Of a stretch of 64,000 nt of DNA, positions 15,885 to 33,983 are shown one piece after another. Where the stretch lies: the NCBI GenBank assembly GCA_017553325.1, contig JAFZMH010000006.1, positions 25,759-89,758 of the forward strand, in the 5' to 3' direction. A program made the position numbers and the translations under genes. The first letter of the stretch is position 1, and each line of letters begins with the position of its first letter. This DNA is from Clostridia bacterium. GTDB lineage: Bacteria; Bacillota; Clostridia; Christensenellales; CAG-917. The notes beneath the pieces were generated by a model. That model had not been told where the DNA came from and ran no database searches. It was given only the letters and a program-made list of their open reading frames with translations.

Positions 15885-15940
15885 AAAAAGCGTACCAGAT
15901 GGTATGCTTTTTTGGTAGAAAACGGTTAATCAAAAAAGAA
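15885..15940 (-). mobile_element. distal degenerate att-like site (tRNA-Ile 3'-end remnant plus a terminator)
   Basis: 15913-15940 matches 27200-27227 at 22/28 nt, ungapped; adjacent hairpin AAAAAGCGTACC-AGAT-GGTATGCTTTTT. Confidence 0.5.
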
Positions 15941-15976
15941 GTGATTATATTAAGTATTTTTTCCACAAAGTCGGTT

Positions 15977-16891
15977 TCAATCGTTTATTATATAGATTTT
16001 GTCTTCGGGGCGGACTATGCCCGATGATAGGACGCGGGTGAAGATGCCTTCCTTTGGCATAATGCAGGTGCCGACCGTGCGGGCGACCTCGCAGCCGTCT
16101 GAGGCGTGGCACTTTTTGCCGATTTGAGTGACGACGTGGAGTGTCTCGCCGATGAGGAGTTTAGTGCCGACCGGGAGAGTGTGAAGCGTGATGCCCTCCG
16201 TGGTGAAATTCTCGGCAAACTTGCCGAAGCAGAGCCCCGAGACGCCGAGTGCGCGCATTTTGTCAATGCTCTCTTCGCCGAGCAAACTGATTTGACGTTT
16301 GCTGCCGCGTTCAGCGTGGCTATCTCCGACGATGCCGAAATCCGCAATGAGATCGACGCCGTCAACCGAATGCTTGACCGTACCTTTCGTTTCGCTGATA
16401 TTCGTGGCTTTGACGAAGCCTTGACGTTCGCCTTTGACGTATAATCCGCTCTTGCCGCCCTCTTTGTAGACGAGAGTGATGTTTGAGATTGTCATCGCCT
16501 TGTCGACGGCTTTTAGCATATCGTAGATTGTGAGCGTGGCGACGGATACGGCTGTCAACGCCTCCATTTCAACGCCTGTTTCGCTGTTGGCGGACGCCGT
16601 GGCGGTGACAAAGATTTCGTCATCGCTCATCGCAAAATCGATTTTGACGCAGGAGATGAAGATATTGTGGCAGAGGGGGATGAGCTCGCTCGTCTTTTTG
16701 GCTCCTTGAATGCCCGCTATACGCGCGGTGTTGAAAACGTCGCCCTTCGGCGTATTGCCGTTTTTTATGAGCGCGATTGTCTCGGGAGCGGTTTTGACGC
16801 TGCCGAAAGCTATGGCTTTGCGTTCCGTTTTGGCTTTGCCGCCGACGTCAACCATTTTTGCGCCGTTTTCGTCCAAATGTGTAAACTCCAT
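15977..16891 (-). CDS. moaC: MoaC-MOSC domain fusion
   Basis: N-terminal FTH...MVDV, LIPLCH, TGVEMEAL, YDMLK; C-terminal MOSC (GDSH, FAENF, QIGKKCH, CIMPKEG). Confidence 0.9.
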   Translation of the reverse strand: MEFTHLDENGAKMVDVGGKAKTERKAIAFGSVKTAPETIALIKNGNTPKGDVFNTARIAGIQGAKKTSELIPLCHNIFISCVKIDFAMSDDEIFVTATASANSETGVEMEALTAVSVATLTIYDMLKAVDKAMTISNITLVYKEGGKSGLYVKGERQGFVKATNISETKGTVKHSVDGVDLIADFGIVGDSHAERGSKRQISLLGEESIDKMRALGVSGLCFGKFAENFTTEGITLHTLPVGTKLLIGETLHVVTQIGKKCHASDGCEVARTVGTCIMPKEGIFTRVLSSGIVRPEDKIYIIND

Positions 16892-16892
16892 A

Positions 16893-17819
16893 TTATCCTC
16901 CGATATAATTCATGCGTCTTGTCTGCATCTTGCCGCCGTCTATGTTGTGGCAGAATGGTTTTTGAGATATCGCTTCTTTGATTGCGTCTTCGACGTTGCC
17001 GTCTTTTAGATACGGCTTTACGTCGATTTCGCCCTCGCCATGCAGGCAGGGGAGCAGTTTGCCGTCCGACGTCAGACGCAGACGGTTGCACTCCGCGCAA
17101 AACTTGTTGGAGAGAGGACGAATGAAGCCGACTCTCTTGCCGTCCGCGAAAGAGTAGTATTCCGCGTTGCCGACTGTCTCCACAAGCGTCAGGCCGTATC
17201 TGTCGATAACTTCCGTGGCGGATATGCCGAATTTGTCGTATGCGTTGTTTTCGGCGAAGGGCATGAGTTCGATAAATCTAAGCGTCACGCCCATATCGCT
17301 TGCAAAATCTGCAAATTCTTTGACGCTGTCGTCGTTTATGCCACGCATAAGCACGGCGTTGACCTTGACGTTGTCGACGTTTTTCTTGGCGGCGACAAGC
17401 CCCGCGATCGCATCGTCAAGATTGCCATCCATTGTGATGAAGCGATATTTGTCGCGGTCAAGCGTGTCGATGCTGACGTTGACGAGAGATACGACGTCTT
17501 TCAATCTGTCGATATGTTCGGGCAGATATACGCCGTTGGTGGTGAGTCCGATCTCAAGGTCAAGTTCACGTCCCACACGTTCTATGAGAGAGACGGCACC
17601 TCTTCTGACGAGCGGTTCGCCGCCCGTGAAGCGCACCTTTTTGCCGCCGAGAGATTTGAACGCGCTTATCACGTCGAAGGTCTCTTCGAGCGTAAGCAAA
17701 TCCGCGTGGGATTTTTTCTCCACGCCGCGCTCTTTCATGCAATACCTGCAACGATAGTTGCAAAGGTCGGTGAGAGACACTCTAAGATAGGTTATTTCTC
17801 TTTGGAACGTATCTTTCAT
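16893..17819 (-). CDS. moaA: GTP 3',8-cyclase MoaA
   Basis: CNYRCRYC radical-SAM motif, FTGGEP, FCAECNRLR, C-terminal IGG. Confidence 0.95.
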   Translation of the reverse strand: MKDTFQREITYLRVSLTDLCNYRCRYCMKERGVEKKSHADLLTLEETFDVISAFKSLGGKKVRFTGGEPLVRRGAVSLIERVGRELDLEIGLTTNGVYLPEHIDRLKDVVSLVNVSIDTLDRDKYRFITMDGNLDDAIAGLVAAKKNVDNVKVNAVLMRGINDDSVKEFADFASDMGVTLRFIELMPFAENNAYDKFGISATEVIDRYGLTLVETVGNAEYYSFADGKRVGFIRPLSNKFCAECNRLRLTSDGKLLPCLHGEGEIDVKPYLKDGNVEDAIKEAISQKPFCHNIDGGKMQTRRMNYIGG

Positions 17820-19684
17820 TTGATTATTGTGATTTCACCAATGCCGTCCAGCCCGTAGCCGCCGAACTTAGTTATGCGTTTTTTAAACTCGTCGCTTGTC
17901 AAAACCTCGACAAATCTCTTGACTCTTTCGTCCTCCAAGAGTTTGACGGGGACGAGGAAATCATAGTGCTCTTCGCCGACGGGGACGAAGTCGAGCCCCA
18001 TACTGTTGGCGGCGGAATATACGCCCATACCGCAGTCAACGACGCCTGCTTTCACAACGCTTGCGACCGCAAGGTGGGTGGTGTATTCCTTTTTATAGCC
18101 AACGATTTCGTCCGACGACATAGCTTCTTTTTTCAAAAGATAGTCAAACAAAAGGCGGGTGCCTGCGCCGTTTTGGCGGTTGGCAAACGAGTAGCCGTTT
18201 TTGAGATCTTTGACAGAAACGATATGTTTAGGATTGCCTTTTGGCACGATAAAACCTTGAATGCGTTTTAATCCGCGTATCAACGCCATACTTTCGGACG
18301 GGAAATATTTTTGCACGTAGGACACGTTGTATTCGCCGTTGTCGTCAAGTAGGTGTATCGGGGCGACGTGAGCGGAGCCGCTCTTCAATGCAAGTATGCC
18401 GCCCATGCTTCCGACGTGAGCGGAGACGACGGGCATCATATCGCCTATGACGTCAACTGCGACGTCGTGGCTGCCTATGATGACGATATTGTCCTTGATG
18501 GCTTGCTCGGTGTTGTAAAGCTCCACAGTGACTTTCTCGCCCGCTTCAATGCCTTCGCTGTGCTTGGGCACGTCAACGATGCCGTCCGCTTTGATTATGC
18601 TCATGACTTGCGATGCGCCGCGGGAGAGCGGAGTGGCAAAATACTCGCCGTCCACGCAGCCGAGCGCAACGCGCAGATATTCTTCGTTTTTGAGAGACGA
18701 GATGACGCGCTTGGTGAGAGTTGCCTCAATCGTTTGGCGCGTGCTTAAACGAAGTCCGAGCAGTGTTTCGATGAGCGGTTTGACGACCTTCTCCATAACG
18801 AGATAGGCGGAGACGGGATAGCCGGGAACGCCGACGACCGCTTTGCCGTCCACTATGCCGAGAATGGTCGGCTTGCCCGGTTTGATGGCAAGACCGTGTG
18901 CCACGACCGTGCCGAGTTCTTCAATGACGGACTTGGTGAAATCCTTCGTGCCCGCGGACGAGCCCGCGTTGATGAGCACCACGTCGCTCTCTTTGAGAGC
19001 GGTGATGAGAGTTTGCTTTAAAATTTCTCTGTCGTCGCGCACGATATCGAGACGCTTCGGCACTCCGCCGTATTCTTCGACGAGTGCCGCAAAGACGCGG
19101 CTGTTGCTCTCCATAAGTTTGCCGACGGCGAGTTCGTCTGCGTGTTCGACCATCTCTTCGCCTGTCGGAATGATTGACACGAACGGTTTTTTGACGACGG
19201 AAATCTTCTCGTTGCCCGATGCCAAAATTGCGCCTATGTCCATTGGACGAACTTGACGGCGAGAGGGGAGAACCATCTCGGTTGCCGCAACCGTTTCGCC
19301 CACGCAACGCAAATGTTGATAGGGACGAGACGGGGAAGTTATCGTGGCTTCGCCGTCCTTCAAGATGACGTCCTCGATCATAATCACGCTGTCAAACGGT
19401 GATTTGACCGCACCGCCAGTGTTGACGTATTCGTATTGACCTTGCTTCAAGGTCAGCGGATTGACTTCCGTTGCGGTGAGCGTGTCTTTTGAGCACACGG
19501 CGATGCCGTCCATTGCGGACGCATTGTAAGTCGGATCGCAGACACGAGCGTATATGGCTTCTGCCGTCACTCTGCCGGACGCACGAGCGGCGTCGATTTG
19601 TTCGGCGCCGAGACGGGAGAAGTTTTGAAGATATGCCGACAAGGTCTCGGCAAAATCGTTGTTGTCAATGTATGTGTTTCTCAT
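17816..19684 (-). CDS. moeA: MoeA fused to a C-terminal PBP (LysR-substrate-like) domain
   Basis: SAMDGIA, GSSAG, IKPGKP, PGYP, then GSHD, GSMGG, NRQNGAGTR; start reset to ATG 19684. Confidence 0.9.
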   Translation of the reverse strand: MRNTYIDNNDFAETLSAYLQNFSRLGAEQIDAARASGRVTAEAIYARVCDPTYNASAMDGIAVCSKDTLTATEVNPLTLKQGQYEYVNTGGAVKSPFDSVIMIEDVILKDGEATITSPSRPYQHLRCVGETVAATEMVLPSRRQVRPMDIGAILASGNEKISVVKKPFVSIIPTGEEMVEHADELAVGKLMESNSRVFAALVEEYGGVPKRLDIVRDDREILKQTLITALKESDVVLINAGSSAGTKDFTKSVIEELGTVVAHGLAIKPGKPTILGIVDGKAVVGVPGYPVSAYLVMEKVVKPLIETLLGLRLSTRQTIEATLTKRVISSLKNEEYLRVALGCVDGEYFATPLSRGASQVMSIIKADGIVDVPKHSEGIEAGEKVTVELYNTEQAIKDNIVIIGSHDVAVDVIGDMMPVVSAHVGSMGGILALKSGSAHVAPIHLLDDNGEYNVSYVQKYFPSESMALIRGLKRIQGFIVPKGNPKHIVSVKDLKNGYSFANRQNGAGTRLLFDYLLKKEAMSSDEIVGYKKEYTTHLAVASVVKAGVVDCGMGVYSAANSMGLDFVPVGEEHYDFLVPVKLLEDERVKRFVEVLTSDEFKKRITKFGGYGLDGIGEITIIK

Positions 19685-20907
19685 AAAATCCCCTTGTTTG
19701 AAAAAGGATAAACTTTCAAAAGTGTTCCGCAATACATTCCTTCTGCGGTCTCCGGCAATACGACGTAGCCGTCCGCTTTCAAAGCGGAGTAGAGATGCGC
19801 GGATTTCAAGAATATCGGAGAGGCGGCGTATTTTTCACCGTCAAATTCCACCTTTACGGGCTGCAAAGTCGTGCGTCCCGGGCTGGACGGGAAGTTGGTG
19901 GCGGCGTAGGCATACACAAAAGATTGCTTTTCACCGCGCAGAGATTTCACCACGCTATGGCATATCGTTTGGAAAACGCAGAGCGCTGCAAACGGATTGC
20001 CGGGGAGTCCGAACACGGTTTTTTCTCCGAATTTTGCAATAATCGTCGGTTTGCCGGGTTTGAGTGCAAGTCCGTGCAAAAGGATTTTGCCCGATGACAA
20101 AACCTTTTCCGTCAAGTCTTTTGCGCCGATTGAACTTCCGCCTGACACAAGCACCCAATCTGCTTTTTCAAGCGCGTTTGAGAGTGCGGAGCGGAAGAGC
20201 TCTTCATTGTCTGGAATGCGAACGAAGTTCACGACTTCGTAGCCGTCGTCCATAAGCATTGCGGTGAGAAGAGACGTATTTACGTCTCTTATTTTGCCGT
20301 TTTCCGCTTTTTCGGACACGGACACGAGTTCGTCGCCCGTCGAGATGATGGCGACTTTGATTTTGTCATAGACGTTCACCGTTTCAATGCCGACGGATGA
20401 AAACACGCCGACCATGAGCGGAGTGACGGTCTCGCCGCGCTTTGCAACGACGTCTTGCGGCTTGACTTCTTCGCCATACAGAACCGTGTTTTCCCATTGC
20501 TTGACGGGGGAGTAAACTGCGAGTTCGCCGTCAAGCTCTTCGACGTGCTCCACCATAACGACGGCGTTTGCGCCTTTTGGCAACACTCCGCCCGTTGCGA
20601 TTTGGATTGCCTCGCCCTTTTCAAGCGAGATTGTCGGCATTTCGCCCATAAGGATTTTGCCTTTTATCTTCAAAAATGCGGGGATTGACGCGCTTGAACA
20701 GTAGGCGTCTTCCGCGCGGATTGCAAAGCCGTCCACGGTTGAACGGGTGTATGGGGGGAAGAAGTCGGGGGATTTGACGTCTTCGGCAAGGACAAAATTC
20801 ACCGCATCCGCGGTGTTTTTGTTCGTCTTTTCAAGCGCTCTCTTTTTCAAGCGTTCTTCGACAATCCTTTTGCAGTCGTCAAGCGACGTCACGTTGAAAA
20901 ATTTCAT
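19681..20907 (-). CDS. moeA: molybdopterin metal insertase MoeA
   Basis: STVDGFA, STGDEL, SGGSSIG, KPGKP, LPGNP; start reset to ATG 20907. Confidence 0.92.
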   Translation of the reverse strand: MKFFNVTSLDDCKRIVEERLKKRALEKTNKNTADAVNFVLAEDVKSPDFFPPYTRSTVDGFAIRAEDAYCSSASIPAFLKIKGKILMGEMPTISLEKGEAIQIATGGVLPKGANAVVMVEHVEELDGELAVYSPVKQWENTVLYGEEVKPQDVVAKRGETVTPLMVGVFSSVGIETVNVYDKIKVAIISTGDELVSVSEKAENGKIRDVNTSLLTAMLMDDGYEVVNFVRIPDNEELFRSALSNALEKADWVLVSGGSSIGAKDLTEKVLSSGKILLHGLALKPGKPTIIAKFGEKTVFGLPGNPFAALCVFQTICHSVVKSLRGEKQSFVYAYAATNFPSSPGRTTLQPVKVEFDGEKYAASPIFLKSAHLYSALKADGYVVLPETAEGMYCGTLLKVYPFSNKGIL

Positions 20908-20908
20908 A

Positions 20909-21385
20909 TCAGTTGTCTGCAATCCCGAGCAATATGCCGAGTCCGTGCTCCAAGACGGGAGCGATGATTTCCAAACTCTCTTCGACGGCTTTTCTTGAGC
21001 CGGGAAGGTTGATAATCCAAGTTTTGTTTTTGAGTCCCGACGTTGCACGCGAGAGCATGGCGTTCTTGGTGATCTCCAAGGATTTTGCGCGGATCGCTTC
21101 GCTGATGCCGGGGACGTCTCTGTCTATCACGGCTTTGGTGGCTTCGGGGACGACGTCGCGGGGAGAAAATCCCGTGCCGCCCGAAGTCAAGACGAGGTTA
21201 ATCTCGTCTTTGACATAACTCTCAAGTTTTTCTTTGAGTTTGTCGTAGTCATCGGAAAGTATTGAATAATCGACTACGTCGTAGCCGAGTTCCGTGAGTT
21301 TTTCTTTGAGATATATTCCGCTCTTGTCGGGATACACGCCCTTAAAAGCCCTGTCGCTCGATACCAAAACCGCTGCCGTAAACAT
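20909..21385 (-). CDS. mog: molybdopterin adenylyltransferase (MogA/MoaB family)
   Basis: SSDR, DKSG, TSGGTGFSPRD, NLPGS. Confidence 0.9.
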   Translation of the reverse strand: MFTAAVLVSSDRAFKGVYPDKSGIYLKEKLTELGYDVVDYSILSDDYDKLKEKLESYVKDEINLVLTSGGTGFSPRDVVPEATKAVIDRDVPGISEAIRAKSLEITKNAMLSRATSGLKNKTWIINLPGSRKAVEESLEIIAPVLEHGLGILLGIADN

Positions 21386-21386
21386 A

Positions 21387-21992
21387 TTACACCTTTATAA
21401 CGTCGATGGTGAATGAGTCGAGATCCACCAAGACGAGTTTGTTTTTTATTTCTTCCGTTTCGTCCGCCATGAGTTTGTTTAGAAGCGCCACTTGCAAAGA
21501 AGCAACCGTTGCGACGGTGAAAGCGTTCGTTCGGTGCGGTTGTTCGGTGTGGTTTGCATAAAACTTTGAAAGCGTCTTGTCGCCGGGGAAGCACACGCAC
21601 GCCTGACCGAAACTGCCCTCAAGCCCGCCGTGCACGAAAATCTTGCCACGCTCTTCGCACTTCTTTTCAATGAAAAGACGCGCCTTTGCCGTGTCGACGC
21701 AATCCATGACGACGTCGACGGAGTCGAGAAGGGAGGCATTGTCTTCGCTGAAAAATTCGGGGACGGCGGTGACGTGAGTTCTTCCTTTGCGCTCAAGTCG
21801 AGATTTATACACGAGCGCCTTGTTTTTGCCGAGTGTGTCGAGTCCGCTCTCAAGTTGACGGTTCATATTGCTCTCGGCAAAAACGTCTCCGTCCACAAGG
21901 ACGAGATTTTGTATACCTAGACGGGCAAGTTCTTCGATGACGAAGCCGCCGAGCCCTCCGCAACCTATGACCATGACGGACTCAATTCTCAT
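21387..21992 (-). CDS. ThiF/MoeB family adenylyltransferase
   Basis: GCGGLG, DGDVFAESNMNRQ, DCVD; start reset to ATG 21992; adjacent to moaD. Confidence 0.85.
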   Translation of the reverse strand: MRIESVMVIGCGGLGGFVIEELARLGIQNLVLVDGDVFAESNMNRQLESGLDTLGKNKALVYKSRLERKGRTHVTAVPEFFSEDNASLLDSVDVVMDCVDTAKARLFIEKKCEERGKIFVHGGLEGSFGQACVCFPGDKTLSKFYANHTEQPHRTNAFTVATVASLQVALLNKLMADETEEIKNKLVLVDLDSFTIDVIKV

Positions 21993-21994
21993 TA

Positions 21995-22240
21995 TCAGCC
22001 CCCCGTGCCGAGAGATACGACCATGACGACGTCGCCGTCTTTGAGCGGCGTTTTGTAGAGTTTCAAATCTTCGATGCTTACGTCGTTGACGTAATACATG
22101 AATTGTCTCCACGACTTTATGTTGGAATTGTATTTTGCAATGAGTTTGTCCACAAGTTCTTTGACCGTGGATGCCTCGATTCTTACTTCTCTGTCTTTGA
22201 AGTTGACGCGTGCCGCGCCGAATAATCTAACGGTAACCAT
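21995..22240 (-). CDS. moaD: MoaD/ThiS family sulfur carrier
   Basis: 81 aa ubiquitin-like; VRLFG ... LKDGD ... C-terminal GG. Confidence 0.85.
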   Translation of the reverse strand: MVTVRLFGAARVNFKDREVRIEASTVKELVDKLIAKYNSNIKSWRQFMYYVNDVSIEDLKLYKTPLKDGDVVMVVSLGTGG

Positions 22241-22241
22241 A

Positions 22242-24143
22242 TTATTCTCCTATCTTCAAGCGGCGAAGAAGTTTCTTCGTCGGTCTGCCTTCCTTGTCCC
22301 AGAAGCGAGTGCGATAATACTTTTTGACGAGTTTGTCAAGCGGCACTTTGCTCTTCGGATTGTTCGGATTTTGCAGTTCGTCCGTCAAGCGCGCGGGCAG
22401 AGAGTCGTCGTCCTTGGTGAGCCCCAAGTTTATATCGATGAGACGCTCGAGGTTGTAGCCGCGCTCGCCGAGCCGCAAGAACTTGCCGAAAGTCATATTC
22501 ATGCCCGTTGCCGCTTTGATTGCCTTCGGATGCGGAAGCATATAGCACGGGAGTTGGAATGCGAGTGCCGTCGGGAAGCGGAGCAAGAATTTGAGCACGA
22601 GCCCGACCTTTGTGAATGCTTTATTGAGGAAGCGCGTGAATCCGCCTTGCGGATTGACGAGGACGGGGGCGGGGAGAACGGCGTAGGTTGTGAACAAACA
22701 ACTGCCGCCTGCGCTTGCCGCTTCCATAAGGTCTTGGAAGGTGATACAGAGCGCCGCCTTGCCGAACGTGGTGTACGGGTCAACCGTGAGCATAAGACCT
22801 TCGAGCACGACGAGATAGCCGCCGTTTAGGTGACAACCGCCGCGGTTGGCTACTGCGTAGCCAAGTCCGTGTCCGACTGCTCCACGTGGTTCGTATGCCG
22901 CAAGTTCCATACCCTTTGCGTTCATTGCGAATTCCTTGCCGCCGTATTTGTCCGAAAGACGCTTGCTGCCCTCGGCGATTTCGTCGCCTATGCCGCGTCT
23001 GAATGCCGTGTCTTCAATGAGCTTGGTGATATTGTCGATCTTGCCGAATTCAAGCCCGTTGTCCCACATATGCTTTTCGTTGCATTCCATTGCAAACGAA
23101 AGCGTGTCAGCAAAGGAAATCGTGTCCATACCGTACTCGTCGAGATAGAAGTTCCAGTCAAGTATGCTTTGCATATCGCGGTTCAATATGTTTGCGCCGA
23201 GAAGTCCGAGCGTTTCGAGTTCCGGTCCTTTGACCTCTTTGCCGTCGACTTTGACCACGCGTTTGCAGCGGATAGGGCAGGTCGTGCAGCCCTCGTTGCG
23301 AACGAGATAATTGTCGTGAAGTTCTTCGCCGCTGACGTCTTCGAAATATTCATATCTGCCGCGGCTGTAGTTCTTGGTGGCAAGAAGGTTTCTCGCGTGC
23401 ATCGGAGCCACAAGTCCCGCCGTGCCGAGAGCAGGCATTTGAACGCCGGTTGCCGGATGCGTTTTGAGCTTTTTCGTCCACTTCGCACACACTTCGCGGA
23501 GTTTTCTTTGGTTGTAAACCTTGGGCATGACGTGTCCTTCCGCGACCAAGCCCTTGAGGTTTTTGGAGCCGAATACGGCACCGACACCGCCACGGCCTGC
23601 AACTCTGTCGTCGCTGACTACGCAAGCGTAACGCACGAGATTTTCGCCTGCGGGACCGATGACGAATTTGTCGCCCTTGTCGGGGATGGCGGCTTGAGCA
23701 TCCGTAGTTTTGAGTCCCCAGATTGCATCGGCGTTTTTGAATTCAACGCCGTCGCGTGTAATGCGAAGATACGTCTTTTCTTCCGCTTTGCCGACGATTA
23801 TGACCGCGTCATAACCTGCGCGCTTCAATGACAAACCGAAGTTGCCGCCGCAGTTGGATGACGTATAAAATCCCGTGAGCGGTGAAATCGTGCTCGTGTT
23901 GAAACGTGAAGAGCAGGGCGCGCCGACCGCAGTCAACGGGCTCGTGGTGATGACGATCATATTTTCGGGGGAATAAGGATCGATTTTCTGCTTGATGTTG
24001 TCGTAGATGATTTTGGCCGCCATGATTTTGCCGCCGACGAACAATTCTCTCTCTTTGTCGGAGAAAGGATAATCCGTGACGGTTTTGGTGGTCAAATCAA
24101 TTTTGATGACTTTGCCCATGTATGCCATTAATGGTTGTTTCAT
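22242..24143 (-). CDS. aor: aldehyde:ferredoxin oxidoreductase (tungsten oxidoreductase family)
   Basis: SPLTG, IGPAGENLV, GRGGVGAVFGSKNLK, CTTCPIRC, DEYGMDTIS, YEPRG, RGGCH. Confidence 0.92.
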   Translation of the reverse strand: MKQPLMAYMGKVIKIDLTTKTVTDYPFSDKERELFVGGKIMAAKIIYDNIKQKIDPYSPENMIVITTSPLTAVGAPCSSRFNTSTISPLTGFYTSSNCGGNFGLSLKRAGYDAVIIVGKAEEKTYLRITRDGVEFKNADAIWGLKTTDAQAAIPDKGDKFVIGPAGENLVRYACVVSDDRVAGRGGVGAVFGSKNLKGLVAEGHVMPKVYNQRKLREVCAKWTKKLKTHPATGVQMPALGTAGLVAPMHARNLLATKNYSRGRYEYFEDVSGEELHDNYLVRNEGCTTCPIRCKRVVKVDGKEVKGPELETLGLLGANILNRDMQSILDWNFYLDEYGMDTISFADTLSFAMECNEKHMWDNGLEFGKIDNITKLIEDTAFRRGIGDEIAEGSKRLSDKYGGKEFAMNAKGMELAAYEPRGAVGHGLGYAVANRGGCHLNGGYLVVLEGLMLTVDPYTTFGKAALCITFQDLMEAASAGGSCLFTTYAVLPAPVLVNPQGGFTRFLNKAFTKVGLVLKFLLRFPTALAFQLPCYMLPHPKAIKAATGMNMTFGKFLRLGERGYNLERLIDINLGLTKDDDSLPARLTDELQNPNNPKSKVPLDKLVKKYYRTRFWDKEGRPTKKLLRRLKIGE

Positions 24144-24144
24144 A

Positions 24145-24661: not shown

Positions 24662-24690
24662 TTGACAGTATATTTTGAAAGGTCTATAAT
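24662..24690 (+). promoter_or_regulatory. consensus sigma-A promoter of tupABC
   Basis: TTGACA, 17 nt, TATAAT. Confidence 0.85.
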
Positions 24691-24696
24691 TTAAGC

Positions 24697-25766: not shown

Positions 25767-25795
25767 CGAAAATCATCAAAAGAAACAGTTAGATT

Positions 25796-26497: not shown

Positions 26498-27131
26498 AGT
26501 CAAAAAACTGTATGGCGACAAACTCGCGCTCGACGTCGATTGCTCGTTTGAAGAGGGCAAGATTTACGCCATCATAGGCAACAACGGCAGCGGCAAGAGC
26601 ACTCTGCTTAACGTACTTGCGAAGCAAGTGCGTTATGACGGCACCGTAAATGCGCCAAAAGACGTCGTGTATATGACGCAATCCGCCTACAACTTCGATT
26701 TCAGCGTCAGACGCAACGTGCTTTTGTTTACACCAAAGAAAGACGCGCAAAGAGTCAAAGAAGCCGAGCGTATGATGCAGGCGATAGGGCTTGATGCGCT
26801 CGCCAAGAAAAAAGCCAACAGATTGTCGGGCGGTGAAGGGCAGAAGACGGCACTCGTCCGCACTTTGACGCAGGATGCCAAGATTCTTCTTCTTGACGAG
26901 CCGACGTCTTCAATGGACATTTCGTCGTCGAAAATCGCCGAAGAACTGATTAAGGAGTATCGCGCGCGCACAAACTGCACGGTGTTCATCGTCACGCATT
27001 CCGTCCTTCAAGCCGAGACCATCGCCGACGAAATTCTCTTCTTCGACGGCGGCAAAATCCTCGAACGCGGCAAGGACATCATCAAAACTCCGTCCACGCC
27101 CGAACTCCAACTCTTCCTCGCCACTCGCTGA
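26484..27131 (+). CDS. tupC: tungstate ABC transporter ATPase
   Basis: GNNGSGKST, LSGGE, LLDEPT; operonic with tupAB. Confidence 0.85.
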   Translation: MIECKVKKLYGDKLALDVDCSFEEGKIYAIIGNNGSGKSTLLNVLAKQVRYDGTVNAPKDVVYMTQSAYNFDFSVRRNVLLFTPKKDAQRVKEAERMMQAIGLDALAKKKANRLSGGEGQKTALVRTLTQDAKILLLDEPTSSMDISSSKIAEELIKEYRARTNCTVFIVTHSVLQAETIADEILFFDGGKILERGKDIIKTPSTPELQLFLATR

Positions 27132-27161
27132 AAACTTTGTTTTCCCCTCAAAAACCGCAAC

Positions 27162-27298
27162 AAAAAACGAACCGAAAACGGTTCGTTTTTTAACTACTAT
27201 GGTAGGAAAGGGTTGTCCTAAAAAGAAACTAACCTATCTTTAGATAGGTTAGAAATCTGTTTTTGCATAGTTTTTCGGTGCAAAAATGTCTCACATAT
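27162..27298 (-). mobile_element. att-like junction repeat (terminator, tRNA-Ile 3'-end remnant, palindrome, arm)
   Basis: AAAACGAACC...GGTTCGTTTT hairpin; TGGTAGGAAAGGGT is 13/14 to the tRNA-Ile 3' end; CTAACCTATCT-TT-AGATAGGTTAG; direct repeat of 32717-32855. Confidence 0.8.
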
Positions 27299-27403
27299 AC
27301 AACAACCGACATTGTTGACAATTTTGAAACAAAACACTATACTGTTTGTGTAAACGGGTGGCTTTTTTATTTGCAAAAGAATATCTTGTTTTTGTGTTTG
27401 TTA

Positions 27404-28705
27404 TTAGTTGAACAATCCGCCGATGATGCTTGGCAAACGAATAATGAATTGATATAATCCTTCCACATAGCAAATGACAAAAGCCACCATACCGACGTTT
27501 GGAATTATCATATCGATTGCAGACGGCTTATGCGTGCGTGTGTAGGAAAACAACATAATGAACGGGATTACAAGTAAGAGTGATACACTTGAGCCAAAAC
27601 CGAGTTGATTGGCAATGGCGAGCCCATCATCGAGTGTTGCACCCTCATATCCCGGAATTAACACTCTGCCAAGCACAGCGTACAAGATAGCATCAATGAT
27701 TGCCGCAACAATCATGCAAACGCTTGTGGCGATTGAAAAATGCAAAGAGTTGATATTTGTTTTCAAAAACGCATTGTATTCCTCGTATGTCTTGCCACGT
27801 TTTAAAAACACACGTTCGCGGTTTTTAATGAAGAAAGCAAGCGCTATAAACACGACGAACGTGAGCGGAGGTTTTGTTGTCAAGAACGGTGAAACGTAGA
27901 GAGGCAAAACAAATCCATCCTTTGTTGCACACAGTGCTTTCAGAGTGAGAGATGCAATTTCATAAAGCGCAGGCAGGATTGCAAATAATCTGAATATGAT
28001 AACCTTTTTGCCCACGAATACTTTTTTGGGGTTGTAGTTGACAAAGAACGTAAACAAGGTGCAAAGCAACAAGTCGATGAATATGTTGAATGACAGATAG
28101 CCGCCATTTGAGAACAACATAAAGATGAGTTGAAACACTTCTTGCGGAGATTGTTCGGAATTTGCCGTAATCATCGCCATAATGCCTAACAAATAGTGTT
28201 GATATATAAGCATAAATAGCGCAAATATAACAAGTACCATAAAAGCATAGCCGGCAATCAAGCGTTTGTAGCCGTTTTGTGCGTTTATGATGATTGCAAA
28301 GTTGGCGATGAGGAAGAAAGGAACAGCGAGTCTGCCAAAGACTTGCAAGAACATTGCAAGACCTGCAAGTTTTGCGACACCTGCATCAAGCATCGCTCCA
28401 AGCATTAGGATAAGCGCGATTTGAGCGGAAACAATACTTATCCAAGCAAAAACCCTAAGCCATCTATATGAAAAAGGCCCGCGATATCTAATATCGTTTT
28501 CAAAAGTTATTTCGTGTATTTTTCTCCTCTTGTGTTTTTTGGATTTTTTCTCGTTGGAGGCCGGTTCTTCGTCTTTGCTTTCCCCAGTTTCCGTTTGCGC
28601 ATAGCTTTCGTCGACAGATAATTTCTCGACTTTTTGTTTGTCAATCGGTTTCTCAACCGAAACGTCCAATTCTTCAACCTTTAATTCGTTGCATTTTTCT
28701 TCCAT
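27404..28705 (-). CDS. multi-pass membrane protein of unknown function
   Basis: Long ORF, charged N-terminus then about 9-10 hydrophobic segments; start probably ATG 28705. Confidence 0.75.
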   Translation of the reverse strand: MEEKCNELKVEELDVSVEKPIDKQKVEKLSVDESYAQTETGESKDEEPASNEKKSKKHKRRKIHEITFENDIRYRGPFSYRWLRVFAWISIVSAQIALILMLGAMLDAGVAKLAGLAMFLQVFGRLAVPFFLIANFAIIINAQNGYKRLIAGYAFMVLVIFALFMLIYQHYLLGIMAMITANSEQSPQEVFQLIFMLFSNGGYLSFNIFIDLLLCTLFTFFVNYNPKKVFVGKKVIIFRLFAILPALYEIASLTLKALCATKDGFVLPLYVSPFLTTKPPLTFVVFIALAFFIKNRERVFLKRGKTYEEYNAFLKTNINSLHFSIATSVCMIVAAIIDAILYAVLGRVLIPGYEGATLDDGLAIANQLGFGSSVSLLLVIPFIMLFSYTRTHKPSAIDMIIPNVGMVAFVICYVEGLYQFIIRLPSIIGGLFN

Positions 28706-28867
28706 ATTGTTTGTATCTCTCCAATATGCGCATGGCGCATAATACACAATTATTTTATAATTCTATAATATGTTTGTCAATATGACTTGAAAAACAAAAA
28801 CTAAGGATGACAAATTGATTGATATATGCTAAACTTATTCTATAAAAGAAAGAGTTGGCATGGTACT

Positions 28868-30961
28868 ATGGCACAGAAAAAAGTATTTAAAAACAATTTA
28901 ACTCTCAACATTATCATTGCAACGACAGCATTGCTTATTGTTTTCGGTATAGTCATTTCGGCAATCAGTTATACAAAGTTCAACGACACGGTCTATGAAT
29001 TTTATCACAACGAGTCTTATGCAACTGCAACGAGTGCGCTTGATCTTTTTAATGCTGACCATATTGACGCCTATCTTGCAAACGCAGACAAAATCAATGG
29101 CAAGATCGCCATTGGGGAAGACGAGCAAAACATCCGCGATTTGAAAGCGGAGTTTGATGCGGCAACCGCACGCTTGCAAAAATTTGCCGAAAAGCAAAAT
29201 GTTGCCATACTTTATGTCATTGTGCCTGACAAAGACGATTATTCCAAGTATTATTCTGTTTTTAACTGCCCGAATGCAAAGTTTGTGCCGTATTCCGCTT
29301 GGGAACTCGGCTCTTTGCACGAACACAGTCAGCCCAACGAATACGACGGAATCTACAAGGATATGATGGAAAACGGGCTTGAATCAGCCAACGTCTCGCG
29401 CAAGCAAAAGGATGCAAACGGCGGATTACCTCATATCAATATGCTTCTTCCTGTCAAGGATTCAAACGGCGACGTTGTGGCAATAGTTGTCGTGCAACAC
29501 ACGATGGCGCTTCTCAACAAACTTGGAACGTCTTTTACAATACTTGTTGCAATGACGACTTTGATTCTTGCAGTCGTGTCTGTTTTGGGATTTATTTTGA
29601 TTGTGAGAAAACAATTTGTCACCCCAATACAGAACATCGTTGCGGAAGCACAACGTTTTGCAAAAGACAACAGCGAGCCTGACGTTCCGCTTGACGGAAG
29701 CATAAGCAAAATCCATGAAATCTCAAATCTTGCAGAAGCGATTGATCAAATGGAACTTGATACACTTCGCAACATCCGAAATCTTGCCGAAGCAATCAAA
29801 CAACAAGAAAAAATTGATTCGGAACTTGATATAGCAAGGCAAATCCAAGAATCTTTGCTTCCAAAAACGTTTCCTGCGTTCCCAAATAGATGCGAGTTTG
29901 ACCTTTACGCTTCAATGCACGCCGCAAAACAAGTGGGCGGAGATTTCTATGACTACTTCCTTGTGGACGATGACCATCTTGCATTCGTTATGGCAGACGT
30001 GTCAGGCAAGGGCGTTCCTGCGGCACTCTTTATGATGGCGACAAAGATTATTATCTATGAACGCACAATGCTTGGCGGAACTCCTGCGGAAATCCTTGAG
30101 TTTGTCAACAAACGCATTTGCGCCCACAATGACGCGGAAATGTTTGTGACCGTGTGGCTCGGCATACTTGAGATTTCAACGGGCAAGATAACGGCAACCA
30201 ACGCAGGACACGATAATCCTGCCGTGACGAAAAACGGCAAGTTTGAGTTTGTCAAGTCAAAGCGCGGAGTCGTTGTCGGCGCGATGGAAGACGCAAAATA
30301 TCAGAACTTTGAAATCCAACTTGAAAAAGGCGACAAAATCTTCCTTTATACAGACGGTGTGCCTGAAGCAACCAATGCGGACAATGCAATGTTTTCACTC
30401 ACTGAAACGCTCAACGCAATCAACGACTTGTCAACAGGACGCCCGAAAGACATTATTGACGGCGTGAATAAAATGATTGATGTGTTTGTGGGCAATGCAC
30501 CTCAATTTGACGACACCACAATGCTTTGCATTGAATATGCCGGCGCACTTGACAAAAACAAGCGTGAGTTCAGCATTTCTGCAGACAAAGACCGGTTGGC
30601 AGAGTTGAACAATTTGTTGACGGATTTTATGAAAGAGAAAAAGGCAAATCAAAAAGTCGTCAACCAACTTCTCGTGTGCATCGAAGAAATATTTGTCAAC
30701 GTTGTGGACCATGCGGATTTGCCGGAAGGCAGTATGGTTGAAGTGTCTGCCGGCTTTGACGACGGACTGCTCACAATCACTTTCAAAGATAACGGAGCGG
30801 AGTATAATCCGCTTGCAAAACAAGACCCCGACATCACTCTTTCGGCAGATGAGAGACGCGAAGGCGGCCTTGGAATATTTATGACCAAAAAACTTGTTGA
30901 CAACGTGAAATACGAATACGTCAACAATCAAAACGTTTTGACATTGGAGAAAAAACTGTGA
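28868..30961 (+). CDS. membrane sensor PP2C (SpoIIE/RsbU-like) phosphatase with HAMP and C-terminal anti-sigma (RsbW-like) kinase domain
   Basis: Two TMs, HAMP-like linker, VGGDFYD, DVSGKG, YTDGV, DDTT; then EEIFVNVVDHA ... DNG ... REGGLGIF. Confidence 0.88.
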   Translation: MAQKKVFKNNLTLNIIIATTALLIVFGIVISAISYTKFNDTVYEFYHNESYATATSALDLFNADHIDAYLANADKINGKIAIGEDEQNIRDLKAEFDAATARLQKFAEKQNVAILYVIVPDKDDYSKYYSVFNCPNAKFVPYSAWELGSLHEHSQPNEYDGIYKDMMENGLESANVSRKQKDANGGLPHINMLLPVKDSNGDVVAIVVVQHTMALLNKLGTSFTILVAMTTLILAVVSVLGFILIVRKQFVTPIQNIVAEAQRFAKDNSEPDVPLDGSISKIHEISNLAEAIDQMELDTLRNIRNLAEAIKQQEKIDSELDIARQIQESLLPKTFPAFPNRCEFDLYASMHAAKQVGGDFYDYFLVDDDHLAFVMADVSGKGVPAALFMMATKIIIYERTMLGGTPAEILEFVNKRICAHNDAEMFVTVWLGILEISTGKITATNAGHDNPAVTKNGKFEFVKSKRGVVVGAMEDAKYQNFEIQLEKGDKIFLYTDGVPEATNADNAMFSLTETLNAINDLSTGRPKDIIDGVNKMIDVFVGNAPQFDDTTMLCIEYAGALDKNKREFSISADKDRLAELNNLLTDFMKEKKANQKVVNQLLVCIEEIFVNVVDHADLPEGSMVEVSAGFDDGLLTITFKDNGAEYNPLAKQDPDITLSADERREGGLGIFMTKKLVDNVKYEYVNNQNVLTLEKKL

Positions 30962-31527
30962 AAAGAATTGAAGAAGCAGTCGCATATGCGGCAAAAATGC
31001 ACGCCGGACAAACGAGAAAGATGACCGGTATGCCATATATTCTTCACCCTATGGAAACGGCGGTTATCGTCACCACAATGACGATGGATGAAGACGTGAT
31101 AATCGCGTCCATCTTGCACGACGTCATAGAGGATACGCCCGCAACGGAAGAAGAGGTGAAGGGGATGTTTGGAGAGCACGTGTTGGCTCTCATCAAATCC
31201 GAAACGGAGAACAAAAGGCGTGATCTTCCTGCCTCGGCAACTTGGCGTATAAGAAAAGAAGAATCGCTTGCGGAACTTGAAAAATCATCCAAAGACACCA
31301 AGATTCTTTGGCTTGCCGACAAACTTTCGAATATCCGTTCAATGGCAGAGCAATATTCCAAAATCGGCGACGAGATTTTTGAAGCGTTCCACGAAAAGAG
31401 AAAATCCGAACACGCTTGGTACTATACAAGTATTCTTGAGATTTTGAGAAAGGATTTGAGCGATACGTTTGCATTCAAAGAATATGAAAGGCACGTAAAC
31501 TTTGTGTTTAAAGGAGAGGGAAAATGA
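30958..31527 (+). CDS. HD-domain small alarmone hydrolase-like protein (RelA/SpoT hydrolase, Mesh1-like)
   Basis: HAGQTRK, PYILHP, LHDVIEDT, LADKLSNIRS; GTG start overlaps upstream stop. Confidence 0.82.
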   Translation: MKRIEEAVAYAAKMHAGQTRKMTGMPYILHPMETAVIVTTMTMDEDVIIASILHDVIEDTPATEEEVKGMFGEHVLALIKSETENKRRDLPASATWRIRKEESLAELEKSSKDTKILWLADKLSNIRSMAEQYSKIGDEIFEAFHEKRKSEHAWYYTSILEILRKDLSDTFAFKEYERHVNFVFKGEGK

Positions 31528-32693
31528 AACATAGTCTTGAAAACGGAGTTTTGACAATCTATTTGGAGGGAAGAATTGACTCGAACAATTCGGAAGCGGT
31601 TGCAAGCGAAATGCAATCAATTGTTGACGAGTGCAACCCCGTCGAACTTGTCCTTGACGCAGAAGAACTCGAATACATTTCTTCCGCAGGGCTTCGTATT
31701 GTTTTGAGATTCAGAAAAGCCAATTCCCGTTTCAAAATCATAAACGTTTCAACCGACGTTTATGAGATTTTTGATATGACAGGCTTTACCGAGATGATGA
31801 AAGTTGAAAAAGCGTTCAGAAAACTCTCGGTGGACGGCTGTGAAATAATCGGCGAAGGTGCCAACGGCAAAGTTTATCGCATTGATGCAGACACAATCGT
31901 CAAGGTTTATACGGAAGGCAGTTTTGAAGATATACAGCGCGAACGCGCCCTTGCCAAAAAAGCATTTGTTCTTGGCATCAACACGGCGATTTCGTATGAT
32001 ATTGCCAAAATCGGCGATTGTTACGGCACGGTGTTTGAGCTTCTCAACGCAAAATCGCTCGCATCCTGCATAGCGGACGATCCTGAGCATCTCGACCACT
32101 ACGTCGAACTCTATGTGGATTTGCTCAAAAAGATTCACGCCACCGAGGACAACGACGGCGATATGCCGGATATGAAAGAACTCGCTCTCAAATGGGTGGA
32201 GATTGCAAAGACCTATCTTGATGAAGAGAGCGGAAAGAAACTTGAAAAACTTGTGAATGACATCCCAAAGTCAAATCACATTCTGCACGGCGACTATCAC
32301 CTCAAAAACGTTATGATTCAAAACGACGAAGCATTGCTCATCGACATGGACACTTTGGCGCTCGGCAACCCTGTGTTTGAATTCGGTTTTATTTTCAACG
32401 CCTACATCGGCTTCTATTCTTTGAATCTGCAAGACGCCGGCAAGTTTTTGAAAATCACCGCCCAAACTTCGTTTGATATTTGGGACAAGACCTTGCAATT
32501 GTATTTTGGCACCACAGACAAAGCTGTGCTTGACGACTACACCAAAAAGGCAAAAGTCATCGGCTATATTCGTCTTTTGCAACGCGCCGTTCGTCGCACT
32601 CTGCACAACGGGGAAGATCATTCCGCTGCAATTGCATTCTACAAGCAAGAACTCACAAAACTTGTTGCCGAGTTAGATTCGCTTGCGTTCTAA
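31524..32693 (+). CDS. STAS anti-anti-sigma domain fused to an APH-like phosphotransferase
   Basis: LEGRID ... LEYISSAGLR (STAS); IGEGANGKVY, VKVY, HGDYHLKN, LIDMD (kinase). Confidence 0.85.
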   Translation: MKHSLENGVLTIYLEGRIDSNNSEAVASEMQSIVDECNPVELVLDAEELEYISSAGLRIVLRFRKANSRFKIINVSTDVYEIFDMTGFTEMMKVEKAFRKLSVDGCEIIGEGANGKVYRIDADTIVKVYTEGSFEDIQRERALAKKAFVLGINTAISYDIAKIGDCYGTVFELLNAKSLASCIADDPEHLDHYVELYVDLLKKIHATEDNDGDMPDMKELALKWVEIAKTYLDEESGKKLEKLVNDIPKSNHILHGDYHLKNVMIQNDEALLIDMDTLALGNPVFEFGFIFNAYIGFYSLNLQDAGKFLKITAQTSFDIWDKTLQLYFGTTDKAVLDDYTKKAKVIGYIRLLQRAVRRTLHNGEDHSAAIAFYKQELTKLVAELDSLAF

Positions 32694-32716: not shown

Positions 32717-32855
32717 ATATAAAACGAACCGCAATGGTTCGTTTTATATACGGTGGCAGGAAAAGGTTTTCCTAAAAAGAAACTAACCTATCTAGAGATA
32801 GGTTAGATATCTGTTTCTCGTATGGTTTTTTGATGCAAAACTGTCACAAAATATA
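32717..32855 (-). mobile_element. att-like junction repeat (second copy)
   Basis: Same hairpin; 32754-32781 is 25/28 to 27200-27227; CTAACCTATCT-AG-AGATAGGTTAG. Confidence 0.8.
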
Positions 32856-32868
32856 ATTGTATAATGTT

Positions 32869-33783
32869 CTATTTGTGTTCGATATCAAACATATCTAAAA
32901 GACGCACAAAGGTGTCTTGTCCGTCAAGGCAGGTGTCCGAGAGATAACTATTATCCTTGCCCCATTCAGACAGCCCGCGATAGTAATACATTTTCTTGGA
33001 ATCCTCAATGATGAATGGAATTATGCTGTTTTTCAAGCACTCTTTGAGAGCAATGAGACGACCAACTCTTCCGTTGCCATCTTGGAAAGGGTGTATGTGT
33101 TCAAATGCGGAATGGAAAGCGATGATATCGTTGATATCAATTCTGGCTTTTGCATTATACTCAGCAAGCAGTTCTGCCATCCTTGCAGGAACATCCTTTG
33201 GCTTGGTAGTTTCTCTGCCGCCAACGACATTTGCACGCTTTTTGTAATCTCCAACTGCAAACCACTCAAGAGTAGCGTCCTTTGTGTCATGTTTCAAAAG
33301 ATAATGCAAATGCTTTATAATATCTTCCGTGAGCGTCTTGTCTGCCGTTTCAATGACATAATCTATTGCGCGGAAATGGTGAACTGTCTCCAAAACATCA
33401 TCCACAGGGATGCCATCTCCAACGTCAAGAGTGTTTGTCTCAAAAATAAGCCTTGTTTGGTCTTCTGTGAGCCTGCTCCCTTCAATATGGTTGGAGTTGT
33501 ATGTCATCCTTATCTGCAACTCATGATAAAGCCCGCCGGAAATCTTGTGCTCCATTTCTTCTCTGAGAATTTGAAGGATTGGATTGTCTGACACTTCTTT
33601 GCAAATATCGCTCGGCTCGCAGCCAAAATATCCGCACATCTTTTCAATGACAATACGGGACAACTTTTCGCCCTTGCCAATCTTTGCAATCGTGCGTGAA
33701 GAAATCCCAAGCTCTTTTGTCAGCTCGGATTTTTTGATGCATTTTTGCTTTAACAATTTTTCTAATCCGCTATAAGAAATCAT
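32869..33783 (-). CDS. Cro/C1-type HTH fused to a Fic domain
   Basis: N-terminal ISYSGL...LGISSRTIAKI HTH; YNSNHIEG and HPFQDGNGRVGR Fic motif; ATG 33783 follows GAGGTG. Confidence 0.9.
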   Translation of the reverse strand: MISYSGLEKLLKQKCIKKSELTKELGISSRTIAKIGKGEKLSRIVIEKMCGYFGCEPSDICKEVSDNPILQILREEMEHKISGGLYHELQIRMTYNSNHIEGSRLTEDQTRLIFETNTLDVGDGIPVDDVLETVHHFRAIDYVIETADKTLTEDIIKHLHYLLKHDTKDATLEWFAVGDYKKRANVVGGRETTKPKDVPARMAELLAEYNAKARIDINDIIAFHSAFEHIHPFQDGNGRVGRLIALKECLKNSIIPFIIEDSKKMYYYRGLSEWGKDNSYLSDTCLDGQDTFVRLLDMFDIEHK

Positions 33784-33795
33784 GCTTATCACCTC

Positions 33796-33841
33796 AAATC
33801 TTTACTTATTTTACCATATTATTATCAAAAAGTAAAGATTT
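33796..33841. promoter_or_regulatory. inverted-repeat operator candidate over the HTH-Fic promoter
   Basis: AAATCTTTACTT, 22 nt, AAGTAAAGATTT; overlaps minus-strand TTTACT-17-TAAAAT. Confidence 0.55.
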
Positions 33842-33869
33842 TATTGATAATTGCTGCAAAAACATAAAG

Positions 33870-33898
33870 AAAAACGAACCGAAAGTGGTTCGTTTTTT
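33870..33898 (-). terminator. terminator after tRNA-Ile (same hairpin as the att-like repeats)
   Basis: AAAAACGAACC-GAAAGT-GGTTCGTTTTT. Confidence 0.75.
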
Positions 33899-33906
33899 AA
33901 ATACAG

Positions 33907-33983
33907 TGGTAGGAATGGGTGGACTCGAACCACTGACCCCCACCTTATCAGGGTGGTGCTCTAACCGACTGAGCTACATTCCT
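33907..33983 (-). tRNA. tRNA-Ile (GAT)
   Basis: AGGAATGTAGCTCAGTCGGTTAGAGC...CCACC-CTGATAA-GGTGG...GGTTCGAGTCC...CATTCCTACCA. Confidence 0.95.

Follow-up and report, generated by a model that had tools for sequence, protein, structure and literature searches.

The accretion of elements one behind the other at a single chromosomal target is an already known model, described for cis-mobilizable elements (CIMEs), for the ssrA islands of Dehalococcoides and for the tycheposon islands of Prochlorococcus. The ssrA islands are the closest known case to the locus reported here; in the portions of the published account on which we draw (PMC3146451), they lie in tandem, are bounded by an approximately 20-bp direct repeat of the 3' end of the gene and insert in the T-loop, 16 of them carry a CcrB-like serine recombinase module next to attL, some have no integration module and are proposed to be cis-mobilizable, a conserved element-derived motif stands just upstream of each repeat, and low-GC cargo interrupts synteny. 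CIMEs, in the relevant section of a review on streptococci and other bacteria (PMC5704250), are elements that have kept attL and attR and lost their integration and transfer genes. Tycheposon islands are adjacent to tRNA genes, where successive integrations push older elements further in, and the excerpted preprint (bioRxiv 10.1101/2020.12.28.424599) also describes scattered partial tRNAs, degenerated elements, and circular or tandem-repeat junctions in subpopulations. Here we analyze a window of 64,000 nucleotides (contig C6, positions 25759-89758) from a Clostridia genome of 1.34 Mb in 10 contigs (48% GC, 97% complete), whose relatives by formyltetrahydrofolate synthetase (FTHFS) are metagenome-assembled genomes of uncultured gut Clostridia (Eubacteriales) from herbivores, and we ask how the 18 kb behind its tRNA-Ile(gat) gene, a new target for this model, were assembled.

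With a probability of roughly 0.55, we consider these 18 kb behind tRNA-Ile(GAU) to be a composite island that grew as foreign or relocated DNA inserted repeatedly at the tRNA 3' end and that is now free of recombinase genes. This reading is secure for the two gene blocks nearest the tRNA (blocks 1 and 2) and doubtful for the third (block 3). It starts from three decayed copies of the tRNA-Ile 3' end at +1153, +6707 and +17994, all on the tRNA strand, which we call rep32, rep27 and the 15.9-kb unit:

33907-33983, minus strand: tRNA-Ile(gat), whose last 14-21 nt form the repeated core
33870-33897, minus strand: strong terminator T0 (AAAAACGAACC...GGTTCGTTTTT), immediately 3' of tRNA-Ile
32717-32855, minus strand: rep32, with hairpin (32783-32806), core (32754-32768) and terminator (32721-32745)
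27151-27298, minus strand: rep27, with hairpin (27229-27252), core, a decayed tRNA end (27200-27214), and terminator (27162-27190)
15885-15927, minus strand: outermost 15.9-kb unit, a decayed tRNA end (15913-15927) with terminator T1 (15885-15912)

The tRNA-Ile(gat) gene is single-copy among the 44 tRNAs of the assembly and has remained intact despite the copies downstream (67.5 bits against the Rfam tRNA model). When its last 14 nt were searched with at most 3 mismatches, the 20 kb downstream yielded exactly three matches on the tRNA strand, with 1-3 mismatches per copy, where about 0.8 are estimated by chance, and all three have a hairpin (-11.3 to -19.2 kcal/mol) with a T-run behind them. 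Positions 27188-27262 and 32742-32816 share 87% identity over 75 nt, and 27151-27213 and 33858-33920 share 83% over 63 nt; a 171-nt rep27 query retrieved 32721-32848 at 83% over approximately 130 nt and 33870-33920 at 88% over 51 nt. The outermost copy (15913-15927) has AACC.TTT.CT.CCA in common with rep27 and rep32 and, by a hand count in our alignment A2, matches rep27 at 22 of 29 positions, with a different hairpin behind it. It also shows 82% identity over 90 nt to a unit of the closest relative, G010, that bears a perfect 23-nt tRNA-Ile 3' end, and because of this orthology we judge the degenerate copy to be genuine. A 15-nt motif shared by the three copies gave three matches against none in 100 shuffles, a circular test in that the motif was derived from these same copies. 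By blastn-short, no further copy of rep27 or rep32 is present in any of the 10 contigs of the genome, which rules out a dispersed repeat such as a repetitive extragenic palindrome or a miniature inverted-repeat transposable element, and Rfam at E values up to 1 matched only the two tRNAs and the molybdenum cofactor (Moco) riboswitch between 15000 and 35000. The preliminary description of this DNA, made from the letters alone, is thus borne out in its account of the repeats: a tRNA end with terminator recurring at 32754 and 27200, a direct repeat of about 135 nt at 27162-27298 and 32717-32855, and a more degenerate copy with another hairpin at 15913.

The boundaries of similarity among these copies suggest where the exchange took place. 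At the tRNA junction, only the core and a downstream arm are common to the tRNA and to rep27 and rep32, while between rep27 and rep32 the similarity extends across the core in both directions, into the downstream arm and into an upstream arm that comprises a T-rich stretch and a perfect 10-bp hairpin; in the outermost copy, the likeness is limited to some 14 nt of the upstream arm together with the core, after which comes its different terminator T1, which is orthologous to the second terminator of G010. T0, for its part, is unlike the terminator behind tRNA-Ile in G010. Since the three copies, upstream of ACC, resemble one another rather than the tRNA, the exchange is placed near the 3' strand of the T-stem. 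This junction pattern fits the expectation for successive insertions by related circles (E1 to E3) in an array of the form tRNA, E3, E2, E1 and old end, with the newest element beside the tRNA, attP-like internal junctions and the old flank of the host at the far end. Each incoming circle would have brought a further copy of the terminal 14-21 nt of the tRNA together with a terminator, thus keeping the tRNA intact and displacing the earlier end outward, and the displaced ends (rep32, rep27 and the 15.9-kb unit) would have decayed because they were no longer under selection. The recombination genes may have been lost, or may never have been on the segments, which would leave three CIME-like blocks without a recombinase; the likeliest type of enzyme would be a large serine recombinase or a T-loop-targeting integrase supplied by another element.

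As far as the cited accounts describe them, the ssrA islands resemble this locus in lying in tandem behind a single-copy essential RNA gene, in their 3'-end repeats, T-loop position and upstream motif, and in their integration-less blocks and low-GC cargo. They differ in that their target is tmRNA rather than tRNA-Ile and that the repeats here are more decayed; moreover, the present genome has no serine recombinase (no PF00239 match), the first gene after its tRNA is a Fic gene with a helix-turn-helix (HTH) domain, and only one relative in the genus, G046, has a serine recombinase at the site, a broken one. CIME accretion, within the scope of the review, likewise involves elements whose ends are kept and whose integration and transfer genes are lost, but there a helper integrative and conjugative or integrative and mobilizable element with its integrase is known and cis-mobilization was shown experimentally, whereas here there is no helper and there are no transfer genes. 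With the tycheposon islands, as the preprint excerpt presents them, the locus shares tRNA-adjacent stacking, partial tRNAs and degenerate elements, and it has a candidate for a circular or tandem junction; the difference is that identifiable tyrosine-recombinase elements occur there in many genomes, while no recombinase-bearing element of the rep27/rep32 family was found here.

The comparison with G010 shows that these copies coincide with changes of gene content. G010 is collinear with the window from FTHFS through the macro-domain gene and block 3 (84% identity) to the tupC stop, after which come a 12.4-kb nonribosomal peptide synthetase (NRPS) block in place of blocks 1 and 2, the T1 unit, and tRNA-Ile. 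Its breakpoints are the tRNA 3' end, the tupC end beside rep27, and the 15.9-kb unit; because collinearity ends at the tupC stop and gives way to the NRPS block, the breakpoints coincide with rep27 and with the tRNA end. We consider it very improbable that the copies are chance likenesses among A/T-rich intrinsic terminators in a stretch of ordinary chromosome. Terminator hairpins of the AAAACGAACC type do recur in the genus, and each individual core copy matches the tRNA at just 11-13 of 16 positions, but chance would have to account at once for the 83% identity of rep27 and rep32 over some 130 nt, for three terminator-linked matches where 0.8 plain ones are expected, for the orthology of the 15.9-kb copy to a perfect tRNA fragment, and for synteny breaks at the copies. 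The G010 island itself (G010:C11, L001/L002, 17234-29400), lying between the Moco cluster and tRNA-Ile, holds two NRPS genes (one with a terminal reductase), MatE-HATPase and SpoIIE-HATPase genes, and a phosphopantetheinyl transferase gene.

The genes delimited by the copies, with the tRNA operon on one side and the conserved flank on the other, are the following:

34110-34138, minus strand: promoter-like TTGACA-17-TATTAT, upstream of tRNA-Ala(tgc)
34018-34093, minus strand: tRNA-Ala(tgc), leading gene of the two-tRNA operon
32869-33792, minus strand: block 1, HTH(Cro/C1)-Fic gene (307 aa)
28826-32693, plus strand: block 2 operon, SpoIIE phosphatase-HATPase (711 aa), HD/RelA-SpoT-like hydrolase (189 aa) and STAS-APH (389 aa)
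27404-28747, minus strand: block 2, multi-pass membrane protein (447 aa), divergent from the block 2 operon
24686-27131, plus strand: block 3a, Moco/tungsten riboswitch (24686-24803) and tungstate/molybdate-type ABC transporter (binding protein, permease and ATPase)
15977-24549, minus strand: block 3b, polyferredoxin, aldehyde:ferredoxin oxidoreductase, ThiF/MoeB-like, MogA-like, MoeA, MoeA-PBP, MoaA and MoaC-MOSC
15093-15596, minus strand: macro-domain gene, conserved distal flank
13308-14987: FTHFS, conserved distal flank together with the macro-domain gene

The cargo of these blocks is accessory, or relocated and displaced. Blocks 1 and 2 have a GC content of 37-45%, block 3 of 51-54% and the flanks of 50-55%. 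Block 3 comprises, in sum, the riboswitch, the three-gene ABC transporter, the polyferredoxin and aldehyde:ferredoxin oxidoreductase genes, and seven molybdopterin-cofactor genes; its oxidoreductase and Moco cluster is present in 3 of 52 genomes of the genus, and G037 was not used as a third context for it, as its contig carries no tRNA, appears much richer in A+T by eye and may be mis-binned. The HTH-Fic gene has a homologue in G004 (70% nucleotide identity) inside an element with Rep, ArdA and two tyrosine integrases, adjoining tRNA-Arg.

The block 2 operon is a partner-switching module, found with its STAS-APH gene in 5 of 52 genus genomes and located directly behind a sigma gene in all three other genomes examined (G010, G039 and G033). 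In the present genome, the operon is cleanly absent from the orthologous sigma locus (contig C9), where a terminator and the next gene come after the sigma stop, and it stands at tRNA-Ile instead. Aligned with L025 (5994-10867), C9:11151-11861 appears as a clean terminator-to-terminator indel of about 4.1 kb, with the sigma gene alone kept here. The sigma protein shows the expected sister relation, being 81% identical to that of G010 and 72-73% otherwise, whereas the operon proteins are no closer to G010 than to G039 (SpoIIE 58% vs 63%, HD 68% vs 72.5%), and for this reason the protein sequences suggest that the operon was re-acquired from another lineage and not simply moved. Relatives of the SpoIIE protein were sought in metagenome_contigs, and none was confirmed there.

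The 447-aa membrane protein has no Pfam or NCBIfam match, and the idea that its open reading frame (ORF) hides a recombinase was rejected on account of its multi-pass membrane sequence. A paralogue of this gene (67% nucleotide identity) lies at C4:110986-112116, convergent to tRNA-Leu(tag) and directly behind the structured unit of that tRNA, a kind of unit described below. As the preliminary description had stated, the blocks encode no recombinase or transposase: none of the 16 main ORFs between 15977 and 33792 has such a domain (small ORFs were not scanned). The window has no PF00589 match, and the genome has none to PF00239, PF01797, PF01548, PF23343 or PF01609 (Resolvase, Y1_Tnp, IS110, G2P-type Rep, DDE_Tnp_1); its sole tyrosine recombinase is Xer-like and lies next to sigF on contig C2. 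When their positions in relatives were compared by eye, tRNA-Ile and a tyrosine integrase shared a contig only in G055, G046 and G043, at distances of at least 44 kb in every case.

Across the genus, the tRNA-Ile 3' end anchors an island of variable content, and the site is a hot spot. Extra copies (1-3) of the tRNA-Ile end with a terminator occur in at least 10 of 52 genomes, and in the seven genomes with clean short-range copies the match to the tRNA begins precisely at C56 of the T-loop, 21 nt from the 3' end. The flanks of G009 and G012 are shared, and a clean indel of 272 nt with a 46-nt repeat at its borders distinguishes the two; several assemblies of the genus break at tRNA-Ile. In G046, a large serine recombinase split into ORFs of 135 and 329 aa lies 0.3-1.8 kb from the tRNA-Ile end, its own end being about 280 nt away from it, with a weak Rep-like match alongside that falls below the Pfam cut-off. 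A link between this element and T0 through a shared 11-mer was considered and discarded, as the letters sit in different parts of the two hairpins. Tandem tRNA-Ile-linked units are present in G008 (L003 10323-10797), G053 (L012 6564-6859), G051 (L011 6060-6662) and G056 (L013 5680-6107), as arrays of 2-3 near-identical units with periods of 158, 148, 301 and 214 nt, respectively, in which the fragment always matches the acceptor-stem sequence of its own genome, a sequence that varies by species. In G006 (L004, about 10220-10243) and G055 (L019), the tRNA-Ile 3'-end copy (24-27 nt, 96-100% identity) is inverted rather than direct; it lies 106-134 nt downstream of tRNA-Ile and is followed by another repeat also found in G053.

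Several observations weigh against the composite-island interpretation or complicate it. The GC content of block 3 equals that of its flanks. In G010, a gap of 3 nt without any repeat separates the moaC stop from the macro start, and the T1 unit lies 231 nt from tRNA-Ile, so that block 3 is distal to the last tRNA fragment; a single acquisition followed by simple decay fails to explain both this arrangement and the one seen here, the alternatives being two separate entries of block 3 within 400 nt or a move of the T1 segment or of block 3. Kilobase-scale blocks between the copies occur only in this genome among the 21 tRNA-Ile loci examined. Furthermore, the search for a recombinase or a complete element of the rep27/rep32 family came up empty: the upstream arm is unmatched in the 51 other genomes of the genus, exact searches with its hairpin gave 0 matches in viral_contigs and 0 in metagenome_contigs, and the G046 recombinase element has no clear arm in common with rep27 and rep32. 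The AAAACGAACC hairpin recurs elsewhere, as a 28-33-nt match, in 21 of these 51 genomes, and for this reason is by itself weak evidence for one element family.

Sequencing run X6, which comes from a different study and contains two strains at about 99.7% and 92.5% identity, bears on this interpretation in two ways. Against it, in the strain at about 92.5%, a contig (11.4x) joins 27110 to 28787, setting the tupC end beside the SpoIIE operon without rep27 or the membrane gene, with about 72 letters of that contig unplaced. Another contig (3.7x) could speak for it, since position 33927, exactly at the T-loop boundary, is connected there back to position 27200 in the CCA of rep27, a junction that would result from blocks 1 and 2 as a circle or in tandem copy; the depth is that of the near-identical strain in this single contig of one run. 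As assembled, however, that contig has two adjacent copies of the fragment, which a conservative crossover within the repeat would not produce. Coverage gaps were left uninterpreted and holes in contigs prove nothing, whether the zero depth of run X4 in the bin 32728-33391 or the low depth of X5 and X6 over block 3.

The first of these X6 contigs also bears on a narrower explanation, in which what moved or was duplicated is a small module: a single minus-strand gene with a promoter and the 135-nt repeat. Two such modules would be present (rep32 with Fic-HTH and rep27 with the membrane protein), in a chromosome where the Moco cluster already adjoined the partner-switching operon. The join from 27110 to 28787 removes exactly the membrane gene, its promoter and rep27, both repeats stand directly 3' of a minus-strand gene with its own promoter-like site, and the Fic gene of the same strain has different flanks on both sides. 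This basis amounts to one contig of one run, in which the 72 unplaced letters could hide a diverged fragment and terminator. In addition, the partner-switching operon is itself out of its place beside the sigma gene, no gene of this sort is attached to the outermost 15.9-kb copy, and the membrane-gene module adjoins neither another repeat nor the tRNA; we therefore find a single-gene module quite unlikely.

Set against these results, the preliminary proposal of three serial insertions by one element family stands in part: the similarity pattern and the G010 breakpoints agree with it, the AAAACGAACC hairpin is weak evidence for it, the X6 strain without rep27 does not support it, and the idea that the oldest insertion is outermost is not borne out for block 3, which in G010 lies outside the last tRNA fragment. 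Relatives with other occupants at the repeats had been anticipated too, and the G010 breakpoints answer to this while the position of its block 3 does not. An empty site with tRNA-Ile next to the macro gene was not seen in the 21 loci, and no rep27/rep32 arm was found beside a recombinase gene, either in the 51 genus genomes or, for the hairpin, in the viral and metagenome contigs.

A different perspective comes from structured units associated with other tRNAs of this genome. Seven of its 44 tRNA genes (Arg-ccg, Ala-cgc, Ser-tga, Arg-acg, Leu-tag, Ala-ggc and Val-gac) have their own last 21 nt copied one to two times, 150-310 nt downstream. The units, and a remnant of a tRNA-Ile-linked one in the window, are located as follows:

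C3:97619-98010, C4:13540-13925, C4:49296-49544, C4:82014-82627, C4:110557-110816, C8:90970-91208 and C9:162978-163306: unit loci of the seven tRNA genes
15600-15884 of the window, minus strand: remnant of a tRNA-Ile-linked structured unit, read by eye, with GTGGCCTT head, hairpin (15736-15757) and a GAACC...core-like stretch

The remnant lies between T1 and the macro gene, where a 385-nt intergenic stretch is absent in G010. The units are 94-303 nt long; they start with a segment complementary to the tRNA fragment, have the core motifs CTGACGC and CGCTATTA in common, and end with the last 21 nt of the tRNA and a terminator, so that both ends correspond to the neighboring tRNA. The stretch that comes next after the terminator pairs with the unit's own tRNA fragment at -13.7 to -22.0 kcal/mol, which is the best pairing in 7 of 7 units, as none of the 15 fragments of other tRNA species compared per unit pairs as well; in the tRNA-Ile units of relatives, the own fragment is best in 4 of 9. 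All ten units that were folded are predicted to form a closing helix that mimics stacked acceptor and T stems and encloses 4-6 hairpins, with the CCA tail left free; against mononucleotide shuffles, z ranges from -3.0 to -6.8. In this model, the unit resembles a tRNA minihelix with an insert of 100-200 nt that interrupts the T-loop between positions 55 and 56. The tRNA-Ile units of seven species share conserved stretches and show compensatory changes, with 10 of 20 predicted pairs changed on both sides. Rfam at E values up to 1 left canonical units unmatched (L003 9500-12000), and the tRNA-Ile-type motif was seen in 2 of 4 sampled genus genomes, in 0 of 9 from other genera of the family and in 0 of 287 other genomes of the order. 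Such units could be tRNA-like-processed small RNAs, mRNA 3'-end modules or folded attachment sites.

In a rival explanation, the repeats may be decayed or minimal members of a genome-wide family of such units that mimic tRNA ends behind tRNA genes of the genus (putative small RNAs or modules for 3'-end processing or stability), and the blocks may have come by ordinary homologous or illegitimate recombination, with the repeats as mere patches of homology and no site-specific integration. We regard this as unlikely, though several observations are in its favor: the downstream copies behind seven tRNA genes, the preference of every one of their units for its own fragment, the uniform folds and covarying hairpins, and a copy number that varies in the fashion of tandem arrays (0-3 extra units). 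Moreover, rep32 and rep27 are predicted to fold as a minimal version of a unit, with two hairpins, an acceptor-like mini-hairpin of 7 or 5 bp, NCCA and a terminator, rep32 combining the 7-bp form with its decayed tRNA end. Nevertheless, both repeats are without the canonical core motifs, tandem duplication cannot put rep32 and rep27 at 1.1 and 6.7 kb with unrelated genes between, and this explanation gives no reason to expect junctions composed of an upstream arm, a core and a downstream arm.

The units could also be joined with insertion in a putative capture system, in which the 130-300-nt units of at least eight tRNAs, each with a closing helix that corresponds base for base to the 3' end of the adjacent tRNA gene, would serve as folded attachment sites, either as DNA, like the attP of CTX phage and integron attC, or guided by RNA. 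A recombinase acting in trans would then stack cassettes, and the tRNA-Ile locus would be such an array with three cassettes, one of them the operon lifted from the sigma locus. We see this as a long shot. CTX-phage attP(+) and integron attC are folded single-strand attachment sites, and the units resemble them in having two inverse target copies 90-250 nt apart that can fold into a target-mimicking duplex, and in forming tandem arrays beside an intact target. They differ in that they are matched to at least eight different tRNAs, unlike att sites read by a protein, and are known here as sequence alone.

Integrons are ordered arrays of cargo units with few promoters, in which a structured repeat of some 60-140 nt closes every unit; their cassettes are free of recombinase genes and mostly hold a single ORF behind an attC site with conserved R and L boxes, and an IntI integrase gene with attI and the promoter Pc adjoins the array. 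Xer-exploiting integrative elements (IMEX), for comparison, target the chromosomal dif site and bring a dif-like site with them; of that system, the single Xer-like gene is what was established in this genome. The tRNA-Ile locus likewise has ordered cargo units closed by structured repeats and no recombinase in the units, a likeness the preliminary description had drawn. It is not an integron, because there is no IntI and no attI and the blocks are multi-gene and bidirectional; its anchor is a tRNA end. The comparison fails on the integrase in particular, as no IntI is found next to the array, and the Xer-like recombinase, on another contig, reaches 59.8 bits with the model for integron integrases, where 265 is the cut-off.

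Two further observations concern the surroundings of the locus. Synteny with G010 (contigs C11 and C82) also breaks at 34203-34274 of the window, just upstream of the tRNA-Ala promoter, and the TetR side resumes on another G010 contig that begins there, which indicates a rearrangement or an assembly break. In addition, two short repeat families of 55-150 nt occur in the window (41869-42015, 328-427, 2816-2909 and 44875-44982), with many copies across contigs here and in G010, where one flanks the sigma locus.

The tRNA-end-matched units are the more unusual lead of this study, as they could represent a new class of small RNAs or a new kind of attachment site. If the composite-island interpretation is true, a gut Clostridia genome of 1.3 Mb that is almost free of elements would gain and rearrange modules at one tRNA gene by means of recombinases that it does not itself encode, the modules concerned being a tungsten-cofactor aldehyde oxidoreductase, a sigma-factor partner-switching operon and a Fic protein. 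The kind of island building known from Dehalococcoides ssrA and from tycheposons would then be extended to uncultured Clostridia of the herbivore gut. The relocated partner-switching operon is a concrete and datable case of a regulatory operon parted from its sigma gene.

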